A stretch of DNA of 24,000 bases from Candidatus Caldarchaeum sp. (lineage in GTDB: Archaea; Thermoproteota; Nitrososphaeria_A; Caldarchaeales; Caldarchaeaceae): assembly GCA_038890155.1 (NCBI GenBank), contig JAWAFZ010000010.1, positions 1 through 24,000 of the forward strand, read 5' to 3'. A model generated the notes under the pieces. That model was not told the origin of the DNA and made no database searches. It saw only the letters and a list, made by a program, of their open reading frames with translations. Shown piece after piece: positions 12,699-23,887 of the stretch. The position numbers and the translations under genes were made by a program. Positions within the stretch are counted from its first letter, which is position 1. The number at the start of each line of letters is the position of its first letter.

Positions 12699-13952
12699 TC
12701 AAATCTTGAAGGACTGGCCTCTTTCGGGGGATGCTGCCTCGACTCCCAGCTCTGAAGAAGCCCAGCTAGCCAGTAAGCTGCACTGCTGTGGCTCGCCGTG
12801 TATTGTGAAGACTTTGGTGCTGGACTCGATCTTCTTGAGGTAGTCGTGGAGCTGGCTTCTCCCCGCATGTCCCGAAAAACGGAACTGCTTGACCTTGCAG
12901 TTGGCCGGCTTCTCAACGCCGTCCGCTACTAGAACACCTCTGTTTAGCAGTATCTCTCCCGGGGTTCCTGGTATTTGGAAGCTTGCGAGGAAGATGGCCG
13001 ACTTCTCGTCCTCAACGACTTTGGGAGCGTAGAACATAGCAGGCCCGCCCTTAAGCATTCCTGCAGGCGAAACTATGACGCCGGGCTCGGACAAAGCGCT
13101 CTGCCTCCCACGTCTGCCATGCACTATTCTAGTTTTCCGGCTCGCCTTCTCGAGAACTTCGACTCCGTCAACGAATTTCTTATCGCTCAGGTAGAACTCC
13201 ATAGCTTTCTTAGCCATTCCGTCAAGCCAGACGGGGTGCTTGAAGTTGTGAGCAGTAAGTATGCATATAATCTCCTGAGCTCTTCCGACTGAGAAGGCTG
13301 GGACGAGGACGACACCGCCGTCGTCGACAACCTCTTTGCAGGATTTCACAAACTCTCTCTCCAGCTCTTGACGTGGCCTATGGTCCTCGTGAGCATAGGT
13401 CGACTCTATCACCACGGCGTCGACGGTTCCCAGCGTGGTGTCGGCGCCTTCAAGCAGCCTAGTCCTAACCGTTGTAAAATCTCCGGTGTACACCAGAGTT
13501 TTGTCTCCATTCACGATCACCTGTGCACTCCCCGGGATGTGGCCTGCGTCGACAAGCTCTATCTCCAAGTCTCCCACTCTGAAGGGCTCCCGGTAGAAGA
13601 CTGTCTTGGTGTTCTGCAGCATCTTGTCCATCTCCCTCCTCTCGAAGAGAAGATGGTCTCCCGAGAGCTTTATGAAATCCTGAACGAGTAGGGTTGCCGT
13701 GTCCCTCGTCATCGATGTACAGTAGAGCTTTTGTGCGTAGCTTGTGTAAAGCATGGGCAAGACGCCGGAATGGTCTAGATGGGCGTGAGTAAGTATGGCT
13801 GCGTTGAGTTTACGTGTCTCGACCGGTAGCGGGAACTCGGGATGGTCGTTCAGCATCACGCCGTAATCCAGAAGAACTCGGGTGTTTTTGTACGAGACCT
13901 CGACCGCTGACCTTCCAACCTCAAGGGTTCCGCCTAGAAACCTAACCTCCAT
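12699..13952 (-). CDS. Metallo-beta-lactamase-fold beta-CASP ribonuclease (aCPSF2 / archaeal RNase J class)
   Basis: 417 aa with the MBL motif THAHLDHSG and downstream DAGHIPGS, ESTYA and HGEP-type motifs, with length and order typical of KH-less archaeal beta-CASP RNases. TTTATGAAAG (minus strand, 13975-13984) lies ~28 nt upstream of the ATG. Confidence 0.85.
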   Translation of the reverse strand: MEVRFLGGTLEVGRSAVEVSYKNTRVLLDYGVMLNDHPEFPLPVETRKLNAAILTHAHLDHSGVLPMLYTSYAQKLYCTSMTRDTATLLVQDFIKLSGDHLLFERREMDKMLQNTKTVFYREPFRVGDLEIELVDAGHIPGSAQVIVNGDKTLVYTGDFTTVRTRLLEGADTTLGTVDAVVIESTYAHEDHRPRQELEREFVKSCKEVVDDGGVVLVPAFSVGRAQEIICILTAHNFKHPVWLDGMAKKAMEFYLSDKKFVDGVEVLEKASRKTRIVHGRRGRQSALSEPGVIVSPAGMLKGGPAMFYAPKVVEDEKSAIFLASFQIPGTPGEILLNRGVLVADGVEKPANCKVKQFRFSGHAGRSQLHDYLKKIESSTKVFTIHGEPQQCSLLASWASSELGVEAASPERGQSFKI

Positions 13953-14349: not shown

Positions 14350-15273
14350 ATGCGTGTCGAGGACCTCCGGCTAGGTAGAGAAGTCTCAGCCGTCGGGCTG
14401 CTGAGGATGATGTCTAGGATGGGCGGGTTTATGGGCATGCACGTAGGCCGTGCGTTCGAGGTTCTCAGCGAAATGGTGAGGGATGAATCGTGCCTGAGGG
14501 GCTTGTCCTTCACCGGCAACTTGGTGGCCACGGGTCTTCGGGGAGTATTGGTGGAACTTCTGCGGAGAAAGCTTTTCGACCTCGTGGTGACGACTTGCGG
14601 CGCTTTAGACCATGACATCGCCCGCACACGTTCCTTCTACAGGCAGGGGAGCTTCGACTCCGACGACTGGCGGCTCGCCGAGAAGAACATCCACAGGCTT
14701 GGAAGCGTCTTCATAGACCAGGAGAGCTACGGCGTCGTGGTTGAGAAGGAGGTTAAGAGCCTGCTCGACGAAGTTGGGCTTGAGGGGAGGGTTGCGGGCC
14801 ACAGGCTTTGCTGGATGCTCGGCGAGAGGCTTGGGTCGGAGAGCTCAATCCTCTACTGGTGCTGGAGGAACAAGATACCGGTGTTCGTTCCAGGGATAAT
14901 TGACGGCGCCGTCGGATACCAGCTCTGGCTTCAGGGAGGGAAGAGAGGTGTTTACGTAGACTTGGTCGCAGACATGAACCTCCTCGACGAGATGATGTGG
15001 AAGGCTGGCAGGAAGGGAGGGCTTTTGGTGGGCGGAGGCATATCCAAGCATCATCTCCTCTGGTGGTCTCAGTTCGGTGGTGAGGGTCTCGACTACGCCG
15101 TCTACATATCGGCAGCTGACGAATATGACGGAAGCCTCAGCGGTGCAAGACCCCGTGAAGCAGTATCATGGCACAAAGTCTCGCCCAAGTCTAGGCAGGT
15201 GTTCGTTAAGGGAGATGCGACGATCGTCCTCCCCCTTCTCGCTCTCGGGCTGGTCCAGTCCCTGGAGGGTTAA
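14350..15273 (+). CDS. dys: Deoxyhypusine synthase
   Basis: 307 aa with DHS signatures: VVTTCGALDHD, GIIDGAVG, GGGISKHH, and DEYDGSLSGARPREAVSWHKV carrying the catalytic Lys in the SW(G/H)K context. Confidence 0.92.
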   Translation: MRVEDLRLGREVSAVGLLRMMSRMGGFMGMHVGRAFEVLSEMVRDESCLRGLSFTGNLVATGLRGVLVELLRRKLFDLVVTTCGALDHDIARTRSFYRQGSFDSDDWRLAEKNIHRLGSVFIDQESYGVVVEKEVKSLLDEVGLEGRVAGHRLCWMLGERLGSESSILYWCWRNKIPVFVPGIIDGAVGYQLWLQGGKRGVYVDLVADMNLLDEMMWKAGRKGGLLVGGGISKHHLLWWSQFGGEGLDYAVYISAADEYDGSLSGARPREAVSWHKVSPKSRQVFVKGDATIVLPLLALGLVQSLEG

Positions 15274-16558: not shown

Positions 16559-18820
16559 TTATCTACGTTGTTTAACAAGCCAGTAAACCCTTTCAGGCGT
16601 CATCGGGGCCTCCAGAGGCCTCACTCCGGCGGCGTCGTGGATTGCGTTGGCGATTGCTGGGGCGACTGATATTATGCCGATCTCCCCGATGCCCTTGGCT
16701 CCGAAGGGCCCCGACTCCTCGTGGTCTTCCACGGGAATCGCCTCTATGTCTGGAACATCCTTAATCGAGGGTATGAGGTAGGTTGAGAGGTTGGTTGTTA
16801 GCAGCCTTCCATCTCGTATTTTCACGTCCTCGAGGAGTGCGAAGCCAACGCCTTGTGCTGCCGCCCCCTCCATCTGGCCTGTCAAGGTTTGAGGGTTAAC
16901 AACTCTCCCTACGTCGGCGGCTGTCACTAAGTTTTTCACAGACACGGCTCCGGTCAAAGTGTTGAGCTCAACAAGCACGAGGGTTGCCCCGAACATGTAG
17001 AAGAGATGCGGGATCTCGAGAGACCCGGGAATGGGCTCCACTCGGGGAACTTCGTAGACTCCCACAACGCTCCTCCCGACTCCCGTTTTTTCAAGGATCT
17101 CAGATACGCTGCAGAGAGATATTTCATGGCCTGTTGAAGTTATCACGGCTCCGTTGCGTAGGGAGACTTCGCCGACAGGCCTTCCGTAGTGAAGCTCAAG
17201 CCCCCTCTTTATCGCCTCGACCATTAGGGATGCAGCCTTTCTCAGTGCGTTTCCGGCTAGGAACAGCTGGCGTGATGCCGACGTCACGCTTGTGTCGGGC
17301 GTCTCGGCGGTATCTGCGAAGAAGACCTCGATTTTGTCGATGCTTGTGTTCAGAGCCTCGGCGGCCAGCTGGGCTATTGCTTGGACAACTCCCTGACCTA
17401 TTTCCGTGAAGCTGCCCTTGACGTTGAACCCTCCGTCCAGCCTAAGCTCAAGCCCTATGCTGCCCTTGTCTGGAAGAGCCCCGAGCGTGTAGCCCTTCAT
17501 GGCCGCTGCAACGCCAACTCCACGCCTTATCCACGGAGCACTGGGTTCTTTCTTCAGCCTCTCCCTCTCCCTCCAGACTGGATGGTTCCTCAGGGCCTCG
17601 AGGCATTTTTTGACGCCGACGCTTCCAACCAGCTTGTTCCTGAAAACTCCGTAATCTCCTTTCTGGACGACGTTCAACAGCCTGAATTCCAGCGGGTCGT
17701 ATCCCAGCTCTTCAGCAAGCTGGTCGACCTGCTGCTCCATGGCGAAGTGGACTTGAGGAGCTCCGAAGCCTCTGAAAGCTGATGCGACCATGTTGTTTGT
17801 GTATACAAGCCAAGCCTTGATGTCTATGTTGGGTATTCTGTAAGGGCCGTTGCAGGTCTCCATGGCCACGTCAAGAACAGCAGGGCCTAGGGCTGCGTAA
17901 GCACCGGTGTCGTAAACTATCTCGACGCTGTTGGCTGTTAGCCTGCCGTCCGACGACGCCCCCGTCTTCATCCTCACGACAGAAGAATGTCTCTTCGTGC
18001 CCGCCAAGGTCGACTCCTCTCTGCTCCACACAAGCCTAGCCGGCCTCCCTGTCTTCAGAGTGACGAGTGCAAGATGTATCTGCACAGATATGTCGTCTTT
18101 CCCGCCGAAAGCTCCTCCGACGTGAGGTATCACGACCCTCACCTTCTCGGGTGGCAGGTTTAGCGTGGAAACTATTTCGTGATGGTCTCTGTAGGGGGAC
18201 TGGCCGCCGGCTACGACAGTTATCCTGCCCAGCTCATCTATGTAGGAGACCCCGGCCTCGGTCTCGAGATATGCATGGCTCTGCGGATATGTTCTGTAAG
18301 TGTTCTCTACGACAACTTTTGACTGTCTAAAGCCTTTGTCTACATCGCCGAAAGCTATTCTCGTGCTTCTGCAGATGTTGCTGTTCTCATGTATCTTGAA
18401 GCTTGAAGGCTTCATGGCCTCAGAAGGGTCTGAAACAACCGGTAAGGGCTCGTACTCCACCCTGATCTCTCCGAGGGCTTCCTCAGCCTCCTCCCTCGAC
18501 TCCGCAGCGACAAGCGCCACCGGGTCTCCTATGTACCTTACCCGGTCGTCGCACAAGACCGGCCTGTCCTTGACAAACAAGCCGTATCGGTTGTTCGGAA
18601 CATCCCGGTGGGTGAAAACTCCTGCGACGCCGGGCATTCGAGCGGCCTTGGACACGTCTATGTTGAGGATTCGTGCGTGTGGATGCTTGCTCCGAAGCGT
18701 TGCGACCCAGAGACAGTCATCGAGAACGATGTCGGAGGCGAACTTGGTTTTCCCAGATGCTTTTTCGTACGCGTCTCTTCTGGCTATTCGGCGACCGACC
18801 CACTTAGCTTCGACCGTCAT
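16559..18820 (-). CDS. Mo-hydroxylase large (molybdopterin-binding) subunit, xanthine dehydrogenase/aldehyde oxidoreductase type (L2)
   Basis: 753 aa with RRDAYEKASGKTKFASDI, GGAFGGK, active-site loop SAFRGFGAPQVHFA and C-terminal AKGIGEIG (catalytic Glu). The ATG overlaps the stop of the FAD subunit gene by 4 nt. Confidence 0.9.
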   Translation of the reverse strand: MTVEAKWVGRRIARRDAYEKASGKTKFASDIVLDDCLWVATLRSKHPHARILNIDVSKAARMPGVAGVFTHRDVPNNRYGLFVKDRPVLCDDRVRYIGDPVALVAAESREEAEEALGEIRVEYEPLPVVSDPSEAMKPSSFKIHENSNICRSTRIAFGDVDKGFRQSKVVVENTYRTYPQSHAYLETEAGVSYIDELGRITVVAGGQSPYRDHHEIVSTLNLPPEKVRVVIPHVGGAFGGKDDISVQIHLALVTLKTGRPARLVWSREESTLAGTKRHSSVVRMKTGASSDGRLTANSVEIVYDTGAYAALGPAVLDVAMETCNGPYRIPNIDIKAWLVYTNNMVASAFRGFGAPQVHFAMEQQVDQLAEELGYDPLEFRLLNVVQKGDYGVFRNKLVGSVGVKKCLEALRNHPVWRERERLKKEPSAPWIRRGVGVAAAMKGYTLGALPDKGSIGLELRLDGGFNVKGSFTEIGQGVVQAIAQLAAEALNTSIDKIEVFFADTAETPDTSVTSASRQLFLAGNALRKAASLMVEAIKRGLELHYGRPVGEVSLRNGAVITSTGHEISLCSVSEILEKTGVGRSVVGVYEVPRVEPIPGSLEIPHLFYMFGATLVLVELNTLTGAVSVKNLVTAADVGRVVNPQTLTGQMEGAAAQGVGFALLEDVKIRDGRLLTTNLSTYLIPSIKDVPDIEAIPVEDHEESGPFGAKGIGEIGIISVAPAIANAIHDAAGVRPLEAPMTPERVYWLVKQRR

Positions 18821-19695
18821 CGTCCAACCAGCTCCGCAAGATGTCGCAGGGTCATGTAGACGTAGTTCGTGGCGAGCTCACGCCTGTAAGCAGCAGAGCC
18901 CCTAACGTCGTCTATGGGGTTTATAGACTGCTGGACGGCTTCAGCCGCCCTCACAGCAGTCTCTTTGTCGAGCCTGCTTCCTTTCAGGATCTCCTCGGTC
19001 TTCTCAGCCCTCACCACCGTCGGCGCCACAGCTCCCAGAGCTACTCTGGCATCCGAAACAGTCCTCGTGGCTTCATCCCACTCGAGGAGGACTGCTCCGT
19101 TAACCACAGCTATGGCGTCTCCCTGCCTAAGCCCGTGCTTGAAGAACTTCCCGTACTGGGCTCCCGTAAGCTGGTTGAATGAAACCTCTACAAGCAGCTC
19201 ATCGGGCTTGAGGTCAAGCTTCTTATAGCCCTTGTAGAAATCTCTCACAGCAACCGTTCTCGACGAGCTTCTGCTTCTCAGAAGGAGACTCGCCTCCAAG
19301 ACGTAGAGAGCTGGGAGCGAGTCGGCTGCTGGCGATGCGTTGACTATGTTGCCTGCTATGGTCGCTTTGTTAAGGATCTGGGTTGAGCCTATCGTCGAAC
19401 TGGCCTCAGCGAGGACAGGGGCTGACCTCCGTATAATGGGTGATTTTACGATTGATGAGAAGTCGGTCAGGGCTCCCAATTTGACGACGGCGTCTTCGAG
19501 CCTTATGTACCGTAGCTCCTCCAGCCCATAGATGTTGAGAAGATCTGTCTTATCCACGACGCCGTGCTTCATCTGGACGACGAGGTCTGTTCCTCCAGCC
19601 AGGACCCTAACCCTTCCAGCTCTCTCGCCTAGGAGATGCAGAGCTTCATCCAGGGACTTGGCCGTCAGAACGTCAACGTCTGCCAGGGAACGCAT
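18817..19695 (-). CDS. Mo-hydroxylase medium subunit, FAD-binding (CoxM/CutB/XdhB-like)
   Basis: 292 aa with the FAD-binding PCMH-type domain pattern LAGGTDLVVQMK and ATIAGNIVNASPAADS, plus a CO-dehydrogenase-flavoprotein C-terminal-like region (DDVRGSAAYRREL). It starts 3 nt after the small-subunit stop. Confidence 0.9.
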   Translation of the reverse strand: MRSLADVDVLTAKSLDEALHLLGERAGRVRVLAGGTDLVVQMKHGVVDKTDLLNIYGLEELRYIRLEDAVVKLGALTDFSSIVKSPIIRRSAPVLAEASSTIGSTQILNKATIAGNIVNASPAADSLPALYVLEASLLLRSRSSSRTVAVRDFYKGYKKLDLKPDELLVEVSFNQLTGAQYGKFFKHGLRQGDAIAVVNGAVLLEWDEATRTVSDARVALGAVAPTVVRAEKTEEILKGSRLDKETAVRAAEAVQQSINPIDDVRGSAAYRRELATNYVYMTLRHLAELVGR

Positions 19696-19698
19696 CGG

Positions 19699-20166
19699 CT
19701 AAACACCTGAAGCTGTCCTCACCGCCTTGATTATCTTGACGTAGCCCGTGCATCTGCAAAGGTTTCCCCTTAAACTCTCCCTGATATCATCCGTCGAGGG
19801 CGTCGGATTCTCCCTCAGCAGGTCTTCCGTAGCCATCACCAGGCCGGGCGTGCAGTAGCCGCACTGAACCGCTCCCTCAGACGCGAATGCGTCGACGATC
19901 CTTGGGTCTGCCCCCTCAACAGTGACAACCTCCATCCCCTGCACCTGAGCCGTTAGCGTAAGGCATGAATGCACCGCTCTCCCGTTCAGCAGAACCGTGC
20001 AGGCTCCGCAGTCCCCGCTGCTGCATCCATCCTTAGTCCCCGTAAGCTTGAGAACGTATCTAAGCGTTTCGAGCAGGGTGTACGCGGGCGGGGCTTTCAC
20101 TGAGACGGGTTGGCCGTTGAGCTTGAACGAGAACTCCCGGACAACACGGCCGCCTGTCATCGTCAT
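19699..20166 (-). CDS. Mo-hydroxylase small subunit, two [2Fe-2S] clusters (CoxS/CutC/XdhC-iron-sulfur type)
   Basis: 155 aa with CSSGDCGACTV (plant-type cluster) and CGYCTPG...CRCTGY (second cluster). Confidence 0.92.
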   Translation of the reverse strand: MTMTGGRVVREFSFKLNGQPVSVKAPPAYTLLETLRYVLKLTGTKDGCSSGDCGACTVLLNGRAVHSCLTLTAQVQGMEVVTVEGADPRIVDAFASEGAVQCGYCTPGLVMATEDLLRENPTPSTDDIRESLRGNLCRCTGYVKIIKAVRTASGV

Positions 20167-20196
20167 AATTGTAGCGGTGTTGCTTATAGCTGTATT

Positions 20197-22461
20197 TCAG
20201 CGACCACCACTCTTTAAAACCATCCACACTTTGAATGGTGTCAGAGGTGTTTCGTCGACAGGCTTTCCGATAGCATCCTCGACCGCGTTGACGATAGCCT
20301 GCGTGAGCCCGATTGTTGACGCCTCGCCCACGCCCTTCGCCTTGAGCGGGTTGTTCGCAGGAGTTACCGTCCTCTCGGCGACTATCTCCGGAATCTCCAT
20401 GGAGCTGGGAATCAAGTAGTCCGCGAAGCTAGAGACCAGAGGAGACCCGTCCTCCCCGAACTCGAGGCTTTCGTAAAGAGCCTGGCCTATGGCCTGCGCA
20501 GCGCCTCCGACAACCTGTCCTTCGACGAGCAAGGGGTTGATCACCTCGCCGCAGTCGTTGACCATCACAATCTTGCGTATGAAGACTCTGCCTGTCTCCG
20601 GGTCGACTTCAACGACGGCGAGATGTGCTCCGAACGGGTATGTTAACTCTGGGACGTAGTGTTCCAGCGCTTCAAGCCCAAGCTCCATGTCCTCTGGAAG
20701 GCTGTCTGGGTCGTAAGCTGCTTCAGCAACATCCTTGACGTATACTCTCCTGCTAGGGTCGTCCTTCACCATCAAGGCTCCTCGTTCAAAAAGAAGGTCA
20801 TCGACACGGCACTCAAGCATGTGGGCGGCGATACGGGTCATCTTCTCACGCACTTTGATGCAGGCCTTAAGAACAGCGTTCCCGCCTGATGGAAGCGTCC
20901 AGCTTCCTGCCGTGCCGCTGCCTGGAGGACCCAACGCCGTGTCGCTGTGCACGACTGTTATCTTTTCGACCGGCACTCCCAGCGTGTCAGAGACAATTTG
21001 GGCGAAAGCTGTTTCGTCTCCTTGCCCGTGCGGCGACGTCCCGCTGTAAACATGCACGGACCCGTCTGGCTCGACTCGCACGTACGCTGGCTGGTGGAGG
21101 AAGTTGCAGACTTCGACGTAAGTTGAGATGCCTATGCCCAGATAACGACCCGTGGACCGCATCTCACGCTGCTGCCTTCTTAGCTCGCCGTAGTTTGAGA
21201 CGTGTAGAAGCTTGTCTAGGGCCTTTCCGTAGTCCCCTGTGTCGTAGGTCGAGCCGACTCCGTTGTTGTACGGGAAATCCTCCGGCTTGATGAAGTTAGT
21301 TTTTCTGACCTCCGCAGGGTCGAGGCCTAGTTTAGACGCCAGCCTGTCGACAGCTCTCTCTATAAAGTAAGATGCTTCAGGCCTTCCAGCACCCCTGTAA
21401 GGTGCAATCGGAGTTTTGTTGGTGTAGACACCCAACGCCTTGACCAGCACGTTTCTAATCTTGTAGCAGCCGGTCATCATTCTCAAGACACTCGACGACA
21501 TGTTTCTCGAATAGATGTAGGAGTAAGCTCCTATGTCAGCCGTGGTCTCAGCCTTCAGCCCTAGTATCCTGCCATCACGGGAGGCAGCTAGCTCAACCCT
21601 GCCATGCATGCTCCGGCCATGGCTTGTTGTCGTGAAGTTCTCCGTCCTCGTCTCAAACCAAGCCACGGGTCTGCGGAGTTTTTTAGAGAGAATCGACGCT
21701 AGCAAGTCCTCGGGATAGATGTTCAGCTTCGAGCCAAAGCCTCCGCCGACATCAGGCGCAATCACTCTTACAGAGTTCTGGCCGACGCCGAGCTTGTAGG
21801 CGATGAACTCTCTTACCTTGTGAGGGTTCTGTGATGAGACGTAGAGTGTGTAGAAGTCGGTTGAGGGGTTGTATGAAGCCACAACACCCCTCGTTTCCAT
21901 CGAGGCAGGCGCGAGCCTCTGTATCTTAAAACTAGCCGAGACCACTTCATCGGCTTTTCTGAAAGCTTCGTCGACGTCGCCGACCTGCCTGGACATTCTA
22001 AAGTAGATGTTGGAGCTTAAATGGTCGTGGATTAGGGGAGCGCCGGGGGATAAGGCTTCTTCGGGAGTCATAACCGCTTTCAACGGCTCGTAAACAACCT
22101 CCACTTCCTCGGCCGCGTCAACCCCTCTGGCGTATGACTCGGACACGACGACGGCAACAGGCTCGCCGACGTATCTTGCCTTCCGGTCGGCTAGAATTTT
22201 TTGATGAACCGGGTAGGCGTTCTCCGTTGCTTCCTCGGCATCAATCTCGATAGGCTCAAAGTCTCTGTGGGTGTACGCCGCCAAAACACCATGCTTGACG
22301 GCCTTGCTTACGTCAACTTCCTTTATCCATGCGTGGGCGTACCTGCTTCTGACTACGTGCATGTAAACCATGCCCGGCAGTTTAAGGTCCGAGACATAAG
22401 TTGCCAGGCCTTGGAGAAACTTCCTGTCGTTAATTCTTTTCAGAGGCTTTCCAACCAGCAT
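20197..22461 (-). CDS. Mo-hydroxylase large subunit, form-II CoxL-like (L1)
   Basis: ~754 aa with KRINDRKFLQGLATYVSDL, GGGFGSK, active-site loop APYRGAGRPEASYF (AYRGAGR type, not the VAYRCSFR of true CO dehydrogenases) and KGVGEAS. The track starts at TTG 22464; the adjacent ATG at 22461 is the more likely start. Confidence 0.9.
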   Translation of the reverse strand: MLVGKPLKRINDRKFLQGLATYVSDLKLPGMVYMHVVRSRYAHAWIKEVDVSKAVKHGVLAAYTHRDFEPIEIDAEEATENAYPVHQKILADRKARYVGEPVAVVVSESYARGVDAAEEVEVVYEPLKAVMTPEEALSPGAPLIHDHLSSNIYFRMSRQVGDVDEAFRKADEVVSASFKIQRLAPASMETRGVVASYNPSTDFYTLYVSSQNPHKVREFIAYKLGVGQNSVRVIAPDVGGGFGSKLNIYPEDLLASILSKKLRRPVAWFETRTENFTTTSHGRSMHGRVELAASRDGRILGLKAETTADIGAYSYIYSRNMSSSVLRMMTGCYKIRNVLVKALGVYTNKTPIAPYRGAGRPEASYFIERAVDRLASKLGLDPAEVRKTNFIKPEDFPYNNGVGSTYDTGDYGKALDKLLHVSNYGELRRQQREMRSTGRYLGIGISTYVEVCNFLHQPAYVRVEPDGSVHVYSGTSPHGQGDETAFAQIVSDTLGVPVEKITVVHSDTALGPPGSGTAGSWTLPSGGNAVLKACIKVREKMTRIAAHMLECRVDDLLFERGALMVKDDPSRRVYVKDVAEAAYDPDSLPEDMELGLEALEHYVPELTYPFGAHLAVVEVDPETGRVFIRKIVMVNDCGEVINPLLVEGQVVGGAAQAIGQALYESLEFGEDGSPLVSSFADYLIPSSMEIPEIVAERTVTPANNPLKAKGVGEASTIGLTQAIVNAVEDAIGKPVDETPLTPFKVWMVLKSGGR

Positions 22462-22479
22462 CAACTAAAGCTGGTCAGG

Positions 22480-22495
22480 CATGTTAAAAAACATG
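22480..22495 (-). terminator. 16-nt perfect palindrome containing a T6 run; probable terminator of the HEAT gene and/or TATA-like element for the Mo-hydroxylase operon
   Basis: The minus strand reads TGA-CATGTTTTTTAACATG. CATGTT and AACATG are reverse complements. The T6 run starts 5 nt after the HEAT-protein stop, and the AT core is centred ~26 nt upstream of the L1 ATG (22461). Confidence 0.45.
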
Positions 22496-23056
22496 TCATC
22501 CACCAGGCTTGCGTGCGAACTCTGCCGCCTCCCCCTCAACAGGCTTGCTGAACAGTCTTCTGCAGAACTCGATGTTGCTCAGAGCTATAACCGCCGAGTC
22601 CACCACCTCTGGACAATGGTCTTCCAACGCCTTGATCAAATCATCCCAGCAGTCGGCCCTGCCTATAACTCCCAAGGCTATAGCCGATTCGTGGCGTACA
22701 ATTGGATGCGGGTCGTGCTTCATCGACTCCACCAAGTAGGGTATGGCCTCCCTGAAGCCAAGCTGGCCTAGGCTGTAGGCAGCTTCGTGCCTGACGATAG
22801 GGTTTTCGTCGTGAAGCAGGACATCAGCAAGCTCTTCGATGAAACCCCTCCCTCCCAGCTCTGCTAAAATACATGTTGCCCTAGCCCTAACCGTGAAGTC
22901 TTCATGCTTGAGAAGAGTTTTGAAGAACTCCGCATCCCTCGCCCTATACCTCTCTTCCATCCGGAAGAATAGGCCTATCCTCTCCTCCGGTATTCTCACA
23001 GGGAACCCGCTCAAAAACACTTGATAAAAAGCTTGCGTCGTGAAGAGGATAAACAT
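22496..23056 (-). CDS. HEAT-repeat protein with two His-Glu motifs; deoxyhypusine hydroxylase (DOHH) half-domain-like
   Basis: Four HEAT-like repeats. Two carry IVRHEAAYSLGQLG and IVRHESAIALGVIG with the AIPYLV linker, matching DOHH repeat signatures. The first 32 codons (MFILFTTQAFYQVFLSGF...) are un-HEAT-like, and a TATA-like run abuts the ATG at 23056. The real start may therefore be the ATG at 22960 (MEERYRARD..., 154 aa). Confidence 0.8.
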   Translation of the reverse strand: MFILFTTQAFYQVFLSGFPVRIPEERIGLFFRMEERYRARDAEFFKTLLKHEDFTVRARATCILAELGGRGFIEELADVLLHDENPIVRHEAAYSLGQLGFREAIPYLVESMKHDPHPIVRHESAIALGVIGRADCWDDLIKALEDHCPEVVDSAVIALSNIEFCRRLFSKPVEGEAAEFARKPGG

Positions 23057-23068
23057 ATTTAAAAAAAG
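23054..23068 (+). promoter_or_regulatory. TATA box for the MoaD/ThiS-like gene
   Basis: CATATTTAAAAAAAG centred ~26 nt upstream of the TTG start at 23086, in the 29-bp divergent spacer. Confidence 0.45.
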
Positions 23069-23085
23069 ACACTAATCAAGACACG

Positions 23086-23373
23086 TTGAGGGTTGAGTTG
23101 TTCGGGCCTCTAAGGTCCGCCGCGGGGTTGAGGGAGTTGAGTCTGAAGGTTGAGGGGAGGTTGAGGCTTAGGGAGGTTCTCGGTCTTCTGGACGAGAGAG
23201 TTAGACGGCATATCGTCGACGACCATGGGAACCCTCAGCCGGGTGTGCTCATCCTCGTCAACGGCGCCGACGTTCGTTATATGTCCTGGCTTGACACGGA
23301 GATTGGAGACGAGGACGTTCTCAGCCTGATCCCTTCAATACATGGTGGTTGGGATGCGTGTAGTTCACGCTAG
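23086..23373 (+). CDS. MoaD/ThiS/SAMP-family ubiquitin-like beta-grasp sulfur-carrier protein with a 7-residue extension after the Gly-Gly
   Basis: 95 aa. MRVELFGPLRSAAG...LILVNGADV...DEDVLSLIPSIHGG follows the MoaD/ThiS pattern (N-terminal beta strand, VNG, ...I.P.V.GG), but the ORF continues WDACSSR before TAG. TTG start. Confidence 0.65.
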   Translation: MRVELFGPLRSAAGLRELSLKVEGRLRLREVLGLLDERVRRHIVDDHGNPQPGVLILVNGADVRYMSWLDTEIGDEDVLSLIPSIHGGWDACSSR

Positions 23374-23887
23374 GGGGTTTTACTGCGCTGCCGGGGTCTT
23401 GGAGCTGATCAACACCTCCCCAGCCGAGCTCGTGGAGAAAGTTCTGAGGTCATTCGAAAACACGCAGCTTATAGACCCAGATGTTATTCTGGACTGGGAT
23501 GTCTTCGACGCAGCTTTTCTCAACGCCGTAATCGTTTACGGAACGCCCTATCAGAGAGCCAAGTCGGTTTCAAACGAGGTTTTGCTGAAGCTTGCGGCCA
23601 CGACTCAGCTGGATGAAGCCATTCGACGGGTAGGGCTCAAGGACACGAGCAAAAGAGCTGTCCTCTTCACGATAGGCAGAAGCGAGACTCAAGCCGTGCA
23701 GACGGCCTTGAAAGTTGCTGAACTGGCGGGAAGGCTTCTGGACCTTCCTTCTGATGAGGGGAAGACAGAGCTGCTGATGGTCTTCTACGGCATAGAGGAG
23801 AAACAGTTGAGCGCCGTACAGGCTGAGAACAGGGAGAAAGCCGTCAAGATGATGATTATGCAGAGGATGGCGGAAACCCTCCTCTAG
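23354..23887 (+). CDS. cgi121: KEOPS complex subunit Cgi121-like
   Basis: ~177 aa. MRVVHARGF..., QRAKSVSNEVLLKLAATTQLDEAIRRVGLKD and the C-terminal helix KAVKMMIMQRMAETLL resemble archaeal Cgi121 as I recall it (…AKS…EILVRASGQRQIHEAIKIIGAKDG…). The track starts at ATG 23342; the second ATG at 23354 gives the more typical N-terminus. Either start overlaps the MoaD-like tail. Confidence 0.55.
   Translation: MRVVHARGFYCAAGVLELINTSPAELVEKVLRSFENTQLIDPDVILDWDVFDAAFLNAVIVYGTPYQRAKSVSNEVLLKLAATTQLDEAIRRVGLKDTSKRAVLFTIGRSETQAVQTALKVAELAGRLLDLPSDEGKTELLMVFYGIEEKQLSAVQAENREKAVKMMIMQRMAETLL

Follow-up and report, generated by a model that had tools for sequence, protein, structure and literature searches.

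Eukaryotes complete the hypusine modification of translation factor 5A with deoxyhypusine hydroxylase (DOHH). Whether archaea possess such an enzyme is the question raised by a small gene of Candidatus Caldarchaeum sp., located on the minus strand of contig JAWAFZ010000010.1 (assembly GCA_038890155.1), of which positions 1 to 24,000 were analysed and are referred to here as the window. The gene encodes a HEAT-repeat protein of about half the size of eukaryotic DOHH and shares the window with a gene for deoxyhypusine synthase (DHS). Hypusine has been reported for Sulfolobus, Pyrodictium, Thermoproteus and Acidianus, in agreement with what the first-pass annotation of the window had stated for Crenarchaeota. 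Papers from 2016, 2018 and 2021 describe a DOHH orthologue as absent from archaea (PMC5178350, PMC6105217, PMC8153317). The best explanation for the window protein appears to be a homodimeric, O2-dependent di-iron deoxyhypusine hydroxylase, each subunit of which would correspond to one half of the human enzyme; the probability of this reading is put at about two in three.

The ligand residues of DOHH in a half-size protein

The open reading frame (ORF) of 186 aa that encodes the protein (Table 1) is present exactly as first described and is a real, conserved Ca. Caldarchaeum gene. All the peptides that had been quoted from it are found in the translation (TVRARATCILAELGG, PIVRHEAAYSLGQLG, REAIPYLVESM, PIVRHESAIALGVIG and EVVDSAVIALSNIE). 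The four HEAT repeats that had been claimed are seen as four HEAT hairpins with two His-Glu (HE) pairs, both of which sit in the VRHE motifs of repeats 2 and 3. The all-alpha HEAT fold is confirmed by the Pfam family HEAT_2 (87 bits) and by an AlphaFold2 (AF2) model of the monomer that consists entirely of helical hairpins (predicted local distance difference test, pLDDT, 91.5).

The register of these repeats is that of human DOHH. The two His residues, at positions 90 and 122 of the 186-aa ORF, are 32 apart, as had been noted, and H56 and H89 of the human protein are 33 apart. The human sequence given in the first-pass annotation is correct, and the full human sequence used here agreed with PDB entry 4D4Z at every residue over 1-289. 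In BLASTP comparisons, the human N-terminal half aligns with the ORF at 32% identity over 125 aa, with the HE pairs on H56/E57 and H89/E90, while the human C-terminal half aligns at 37% identity over 108 aa, with the HE pairs on H207/E208 and H240/E241. The alignment to the N-terminal half, which had been described as nearly gapless, contains 2 gaps over the 125 aa.

In human DOHH, the four His-Glu motifs H56-E57, H89-E90, H207-E208 and H240-E241 are strictly conserved; the HE pairs are the iron ligands, and the Glu of each pair together with the Gly of an LGQ motif are the residues that bind deoxyhypusine (PMC9117371). These iron and substrate ligands are all matched in the window protein, including the HE..Y.LGQ motif. 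The stretch HEAAYSLGQ, which starts at pair 1, stands opposite HELAYCLGQ in the human N-terminal half and HEVGYVLGQ in the C-terminal half, and its AAYSLGQ portion matches the human LAYCLGQ that carries the substrate-binding Gly. In the alignment, the Phe of the C-terminal tail falls on the F(Q/E)Y found at the C-terminus of eukaryotic DOHH. The Gly-Gly end of this tail, where AF2 confidence is low, amounts to a ubiquitin-like Gly-Gly terminus on a HEAT protein.

The likeness to eukaryotic DOHH (DOHH/Lia1/nero; EC 1.14.99.29; PDB 4D4Z) therefore extends to the all-HEAT fold, to VRHE in repeats 2 and 3 of a four-repeat unit, to the HE..Y.LGQ motif and the C-terminal aromatic Phe, to an identity of 32-37% with either human half and to co-occurrence with DHS. 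The differences are in architecture. Whereas eukaryotic DOHH is a single chain of about 300 aa with eight hairpins, the window protein has 167 aa and four hairpins and corresponds to one half only. With two HE pairs per chain, it would require a homodimer; it lacks the inter-half linker with its SVDPAPP motif, and it ends in an invariant ...TGG-COOH tail. Moreover, the half-size family is archaeal (Nitrososphaerota), and its activity is a predicted one.

Homology beyond generic HEAT similarity

A DOHH-like protein has to be told apart from an ordinary HEAT solenoid, and raw scores failed to do so. The Pfam matches of the window protein are generic only (HEAT_2, as given above, HEAT and HEAT_PBS). 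In a sequence search of the PDB, artificial alphaRep consensus proteins come out on top and human DOHH (4D4Z) is the best natural match, with an E-value of 2.3e-24, and a profile of the family scores human DOHH at 130.8 bits. Discrimination by raw score was consequently replaced by a per-domain reciprocal test and by an estimate of the motif background. The first-pass annotation had named generic HEAT profiles scoring as well as DOHH profiles as a finding that would refute its proposal; this is what the raw scores give, whereas the register, the motif background, the conservation and the reciprocal test all point to DOHH. Since raw scores do not separate DOHH from idealised HEAT repeats, the argument for DOHH is built on residues specific to the register, on the reciprocal test and on gene context.

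That generic HEAT repeats lack the HE pair, as had been proposed, is borne out by the motif background: across 148 generic HEAT_PBS-type proteins, HE occupies the equivalent position in 8/1586 repeats (0.5%), and five of these eight cases belong to a single protein, P0218. This protein (JGI, 1029 aa) is a large HEAT-repeat protein in which five repeats have HE at the DOHH ligand position. For the reciprocal test, each human half was compared by per-domain phmmer with 120 family members and with the 145 top generic HEAT proteins in a collection of 1.84 billion sequences. The human N-terminal half scores 41.5-66.1 bits against the family and at most 39.5 bits against the generic proteins, with no overlap; for the C-terminal half, the ranges barely overlap, with 34.9-55.6 bits for the family and at most 35.3 bits for the generic proteins.

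At a structural level, the highest template modelling (TM) score of the AF2 monomer in a Foldseek search is to chain A of 4D4Z (TM 0.76, query-normalised, with a root-mean-square deviation, rmsd, of 3.5 Å over 139 columns). No other match that spans most of the chain has a lower rmsd; for alphaReps with similar coverage the values are 6.9-10.0 Å.

The families CpcE/CpcF, NblB and the MTH187-like family behind alphaRep share with the window protein the repeat type (VRxxAAxALG, about 31 residues) and the four-repeat solenoid geometry. Unlike it, they have no HE pairs, form a continuous solenoid rather than a two-lobed dyad, and serve in bilin binding or scaffolding. The curated NCBIfam models also score far below their cutoffs, with 31.8 bits for NblB (cutoff 300), 26.6 for CpcE (330) and 16.2 for CpcF (220), so the protein does not classify as a phycobilin lyase or NblB. 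Taken together, it is close to certain that the homology of the window protein to DOHH is specific and goes beyond generic HEAT similarity.

Conservation, distribution and existing annotation

Relatives were collected from one genome per GTDB species, which gave at least 541 of them; the counts for 80 loci given here refer to the best 80. Both HE pairs are kept without exception, in 26/26 members of the alignment and at 80/80 species loci, in line with the conservation that the first-pass annotation had required of orthologues, and across the family they are invariant in exactly repeats 2 and 3. The motif HE[AS][AS][YF].LG[QH] is found in 80/80 species loci. The C-terminal F-[AT]-[KR]-x-[TP]-G-G is kept in the 26 aligned members and at 80/80 species loci, all of which end in GG. 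Family members are 45-99% identical to the window protein.

The best 80 of the at least 541 relatives are all from Nitrososphaerota, namely Caldarchaeales, Nitrosopumilus, Nitrosotenuis, Nitrosotalea, Nitrososphaera, Nitrosocaldus and Nitrosomirales. All of these groups live as aerobes or facultative organisms, consistent with an O2-dependent enzyme. Among the best 80 loci no second paralogue is seen, and in the sole metagenome-assembled genome (MAG) where two loci occur, the copies are 94% identical and probably represent strain variants. A heterodimer of paralogues was rejected on this account.

With regard to existing annotation, IMG/JGI automatically names many family members, as well as some full-length archaeal proteins, 'deoxyhypusine monooxygenase', while the NCBI label for members is 'HEAT repeat domain-containing protein'. 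The literature search found no paper proposing an archaeal DOHH, whether in Thaumarchaeota, Nitrososphaerota or Asgard, and none that mentions the full-length proteins with four HE motifs of Heimdallarchaeota and Nanoarchaeia discussed below. The papers found do describe DOHH as missing from archaea, in agreement with the earlier statement, but the automatic IMG labels already exist, and full-length homologues occur in those two groups. As far as could be found, an archaeal DOHH exists as an automatic label and not as a stated or tested claim.

A tandem fusion and full-length archaeal homologues

An exhaustive profile search with the family gave no phyletic view, since its best 150 matches were swamped by giant multi-repeat HEAT proteins. 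It did yield the control set used above and a protein, P0125 (Logan SRR21363124_14), in which two complete family units are joined in one chain of 363 aa with four HE pairs. Identity to the window protein is 40% for one unit and 43% for the other, and the C-terminus, FARLIGG, has the same FARxxGG tail. P0125 starts with a signal-peptide-like segment, which may reflect a miscalled start.

When P0125 was searched against 5.8 billion proteins, a few half-size relatives came first, followed by eukaryotic DOHHs, with E-values of about 1e-24 and alignments covering both halves. The eukaryotic matches included Galdieria, plants, fungi and a nematode, and Nanoarchaeota proteins of about 280 aa were also matched. 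In the alignment of P0125 with eukaryotic DOHH, the four HE pairs are all in register. The AF2 model of P0125 has a predicted TM score (pTM) of 0.84, with 271 residues above pLDDT 90, and a TM of 0.80 to 4D4Z (normalised to DOHH), whereas alphaRep solenoids long enough for both units reach at most 0.50.

Full-length homologues with four HE motifs and a very short inter-half linker are also found in Heimdallarchaeota/Kariarchaeaceae (P0461 and P0467, about 260 aa) and in Nanoarchaeia (P0300 and P0445, about 280 aa). The Nanoarchaeia genes adjoin PCNA and NOG1, a typical archaeal context, and DHS was not found beside them in the contexts inspected. These proteins have the same HE motifs and HEAT unit as the half-size family, are archaeal and are likewise uncharacterised, but they contain two halves per chain and show about 27-28% identity to the half-size family.

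In neighbour-joining trees of half-units, which are crude, the N- and C-terminal halves pair with their own partner in eukaryotes, Heimdallarchaeota, Nanoarchaeia and P0125; the group that joins the Nitrososphaerota family and P0125 has a bootstrap value of 100, and the remaining groups have values of only 23-73. That the two halves of the Heimdallarchaeota and of the Nanoarchaeia proteins each cluster with their own partner suggests separate duplications, and the trees as a whole suggest repeated independent duplication-fusions of a half-size ancestor. Several independent fusions, for which the support is weak, are what would be expected if the functional unit is two halves.

Gene context and the link to DHS

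The DHS gene reported in the window, whose product would supply the substrate of the hydroxylase, is a bona fide one by both the Pfam family DS and NCBIfam NF002294 (Table 1), and the distance of about 7 kb that had been given for it corresponds to a gap of 7.2 kb. The other neighbours of the DOHH-like gene in the window are divergent ThiS/Urm1-like and Cgi121 genes, a downstream operon for an aerobic-type molybdenum (Mo) hydroxylase, and genes for an aspartokinase and a beta-CASP RNase. In Caldarchaeum genomes whose HEAT protein is 71-99% identical to that of the window, DHS stays 5-7 kb away, with the Mo-hydroxylase and aspartokinase genes in between.

A closer arrangement is seen in archaeon HR01, where 76 bp separate the half-size gene from a divergent DHS paralogue of 344 aa, beyond which there is a second DHS of the window type (307 aa). 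The two HR01 paralogues (L008 7949-9889), in a tail-to-tail arrangement, share about 25% identity; the 307-aa protein belongs to NF002294, like that of the window, and the 344-aa protein to NF002006, with an SWGK catalytic motif.

Of the functional links found, the strongest is the locus of the P0125 fusion, L081, which is a compact hypusination-plus-putrescine cluster. An IF5A-like gene on the opposite strand is followed by genes for DHS, a pyridoxal phosphate-dependent decarboxylase, N-carbamoylputrescine amidase, agmatine deiminase and P0125, all on one strand. The IF5A-like protein comprises the N-domain only, with a KAGKHGGPK loop and a long, acidic and probably disordered N-terminus. Next to the cluster, L081 2480-4522 holds, besides the IF5A-like gene, one for a TauD enzyme resembling gamma-butyrobetaine dioxygenase.

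Proposed function and alternative explanations

The proposal that the window protein is one DOHH half is supported by its specific homology, by the invariant ligand residues, by the natural fusion P0125 and by the DHS context of that fusion. In the proposed mechanism, two subunits would associate head to head, like the two halves of human DOHH, and four His and four Glu residues would converge on a di-iron centre in the dimer. The dimer would bind O2 as a peroxo-diiron(III) species, and the enzyme would work only in oxic conditions, which fits aerobic or facultative Nitrososphaerota such as the Caldarchaeales and the ammonia oxidisers.

Several points weigh against this hydroxylase. Catalysis, iron binding and the dimer are, for the window protein, predictions, and by raw score alphaRep designs and Pfam HEAT_2 equal DOHH. 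The 7-kb distance to DHS is, taken alone, weak evidence. In Nitrosopumilales and several Caldarchaeales neither DHS nor aIF5A is found within 10 kb, and a single aIF5A query sequence gave no match within 10 kb of the gene in any of 87 sequences. The IF5A-like gene of cluster L081 is atypical. The word-index search with P0125 may have favoured proteins that share VRHEA-type words, eukaryotic DOHHs were part of the alignment behind the P0125 model, and 4D4Z belongs to the training data of AlphaFold. In the literature search, no chemical determination of hypusine versus deoxyhypusine was found for any Nitrososphaerota. Furthermore, it is in Sulfolobus, Thermoproteus and Pyrodictium that hypusine has been shown chemically, while the half-size family is, among its best 80 loci, seen only in Nitrososphaerota. 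An O2-dependent enzyme could not act in strict anaerobes, and the family leaves the hypusine of strictly anaerobic Crenarchaeota unaccounted for.

The alternative that survives best, although it appears unlikely, is that the protein is a DOHH-related di-metal HEAT oxygenase or metal binder that acts on another substrate, such as a modified lysine, a polyamine adduct or an IF5A-like paralogue. The scarcity of linkage to DHS or aIF5A in most genomes would fit such a role, as would the atypical IF5A-like gene of L081, with its lone N-domain and long acidic tail, and a GG tail that, beyond its Phe, has no counterpart in eukaryotic DOHH. However, the residues that bind deoxyhypusine in the human enzyme, that is, both Glu of the HE pairs and the Gly of LGQ, are invariant in the family; the L081 IF5A-like protein retains the KxGKHG hypusination loop and its gene adjoins DHS; and no other substrate of DOHH is known (PMC9117371).

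It is quite improbable that the protein is a non-catalytic relic or regulator that binds deoxyhypusinated aIF5A or DHS, for example to protect a reversible adduct, or that it works as a monomer or with another partner instead of as a homodimer. Arguing against this alternative are the full conservation of ligands of the catalytic type in a family whose members have 45-99% identity to the window protein, the repeated natural two-half fusions that keep four HE pairs, and the absence, among the best 80 loci, of a second paralogue other than the 94%-identical copies in one MAG. What speaks for this alternative is that one half supplies ligands for one iron only, that dimerisation is itself deduced, and that the HR01 gene adjoins two DHS paralogues. 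An ordinary small HEAT scaffold or adaptor of the PBS-lyase/NblB/MTH187 type, with structural HE pairs and no catalytic metal site, is very improbable: the generic Pfam matches, alphaRep designs that score above DOHH and the NCBI label are in its favour, but the NblB and CpcE scores are far under their cutoffs, HE is rare in generic repeats and invariant in exactly repeats 2 and 3 of the family, the reciprocal test sets the family apart, and the fusion P0125 retrieves DOHHs and clusters with DHS.

If the homodimeric hydroxylase is accepted, a further step, possible but doubtful, is that the half-size homodimer is the ancestral form of DOHH. Duplication and fusion of such a half-gene, independently each time, would have produced the eight-repeat single chains of eukaryotes, Heimdallarchaeia, Nanoarchaeia and P0125, and the GG tail would be a new functional element. 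The tail, ...[KR]-x-T-G-G, might for example gate the di-iron pocket or serve as a docking peptide for aIF5A or DHS.

Implications

The half-size family offers a testable candidate for the step behind archaeal aIF5A hypusination that was left open by the papers denying an archaeal DOHH. It occurs in Nitrososphaerota, a major archaeal phylum that includes globally abundant ammonia oxidisers and for which cultures and proteomes exist. If the proposed activity is correct, a di-iron oxygenase would exist in a minimal form of 167 aa on a HEAT scaffold, which would be useful for mechanistic work and, given its close relationship to alphaRep scaffolds, for protein design. The family would also illustrate the origin of a symmetric two-lobed enzyme from a homodimer and, together with the Heimdallarchaeota and Nanoarchaeia homologues, would move the origin of hypusine hydroxylation back into archaea. 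For anaerobic Crenarchaeota, a second, unrelated hydroxylase would still have to be sought.

Gene boundaries and neighbouring genes

The coordinates of the gene, its motifs and the surrounding features are collected in Table 1.

Table 1. Positions of the DOHH-like gene, its motifs and neighbouring features in the window
Feature	Position	Strand	Remarks
Half-size DOHH-like gene	22496..22999	-	167 aa; span includes the stop codon; probable GTG start = V20 of long ORF
Mechanical ORF	22496..23056	-	186 aa, from ATG at 23056
His-Glu pair 1 (CAC GAA)	22784..22789	-	H90/E91 of 186-aa ORF = H71/E72 of 167-aa protein; aligns with human H56/E57 and H207/E208
His-Glu pair 2 (CAC GAA)	22688..22693	-	H122/E123 of 186-aa ORF; aligns with human H89/E90 and H240/E241
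C-terminal tail F-A-R-K-P-G-G	22499..22519	-	family consensus F-[AT]-[KR]-x-[TP]-G-G-COOH
Palindrome CATGTTTTTTAACATG with T6 run (22486-22491)	22480..22495	-	directly after stop codon; sequence only
A/T-rich TATA-like box TTTAAATA	23056..23063	.	in 30-bp gap between long ORF and divergent ThiS-like gene; read from the letters alone
Deoxyhypusine synthase (DHS)	14350..15273	+	Pfam DS 318 bits; NCBIfam NF002294 388.5 bits (cutoff 350)
RMMBL gene	12699..13952		divergent neighbour of DHS
Mo-hydroxylase genes	16559..22464	-	two large subunits, FAD and 2Fe-2S subunits
Mo-hydroxylase large-subunit copy	20197..22464		beside DOHH-like gene
ThiS/Urm1-like gene	23086..23373	+	95 aa
Cgi121 (KEOPS) gene	23342..23887	+	start overlapped by ThiS/Urm1-like gene

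The true start of the gene is probably the GTG at 22999. Homologues have 162-172 aa, and in the alignment their N-termini fall at the position of V20; P0002 from Ca. Caldarchaeum, which is the nearest named relative and 89% identical, has 167 aa and begins MRIPEER. The upstream ATG is unlikely to serve as the start, since the TTTAAATA box overlaps it. M33 was excluded as a start because a conserved N-terminal segment, ER..LF.EME..Y, lies upstream of it. The box could be a promoter for either or both of the divergent genes. A T6 run had been claimed directly past the stop codon, and it is indeed found there, within the palindrome CATGTTTTTTAACATG; palindrome and run plausibly form an archaeal terminator, with the start of the Mo-hydroxylase gene following downstream at 22464. 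Over the DOHH-like gene, the window is 99% identical to a MAG of Ca. Caldarchaeum sp. (L001).

Outside Caldarchaeales, the conserved neighbours in Nitrosopumilales are an AhpC/TSA-like redoxin, L15e and Rad50/Mre11/HerA, which say nothing on the pathway. The redoxin-like gene, of 220 aa (for instance L012 9217-9879, minus strand), is a conserved divergent neighbour in 48/80 loci; it could encode the reductant of the enzyme or reflect mere synteny. In an HR01-like lineage (L008 10462-11518; L087 2700-4698), the DOHH-like gene is flanked by SLOG/LOG-like and ferritin-like genes, and in L087 a NifU_N gene is also adjacent, which makes this an iron-handling neighbourhood. In one Caldarchaeales lineage (L088, L089 6001-7532), a beta-CASP/RMMBL RNase gene starts 11 bp after the DOHH-like gene. 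An RMMBL gene is also the divergent neighbour of DHS in the window, and the adjacency may be a trace of an older cluster of DHS, DOHH-like and RMMBL genes, although this is a weak hint.

The ThiS/Urm1-like protein encoded next to the DOHH-like gene contains IPSIHGG followed by seven further residues, WDACSSR, and its gene overlaps the start of the Cgi121 gene. This pair, divergent from the DOHH-like gene, is kept in L001-L005. On the other side, the two Mo-hydroxylase large subunits are paralogous, about 31% identical, and their genes flank those of the FAD and 2Fe-2S subunits; the copy beside the DOHH-like gene is missing in L003-L005.

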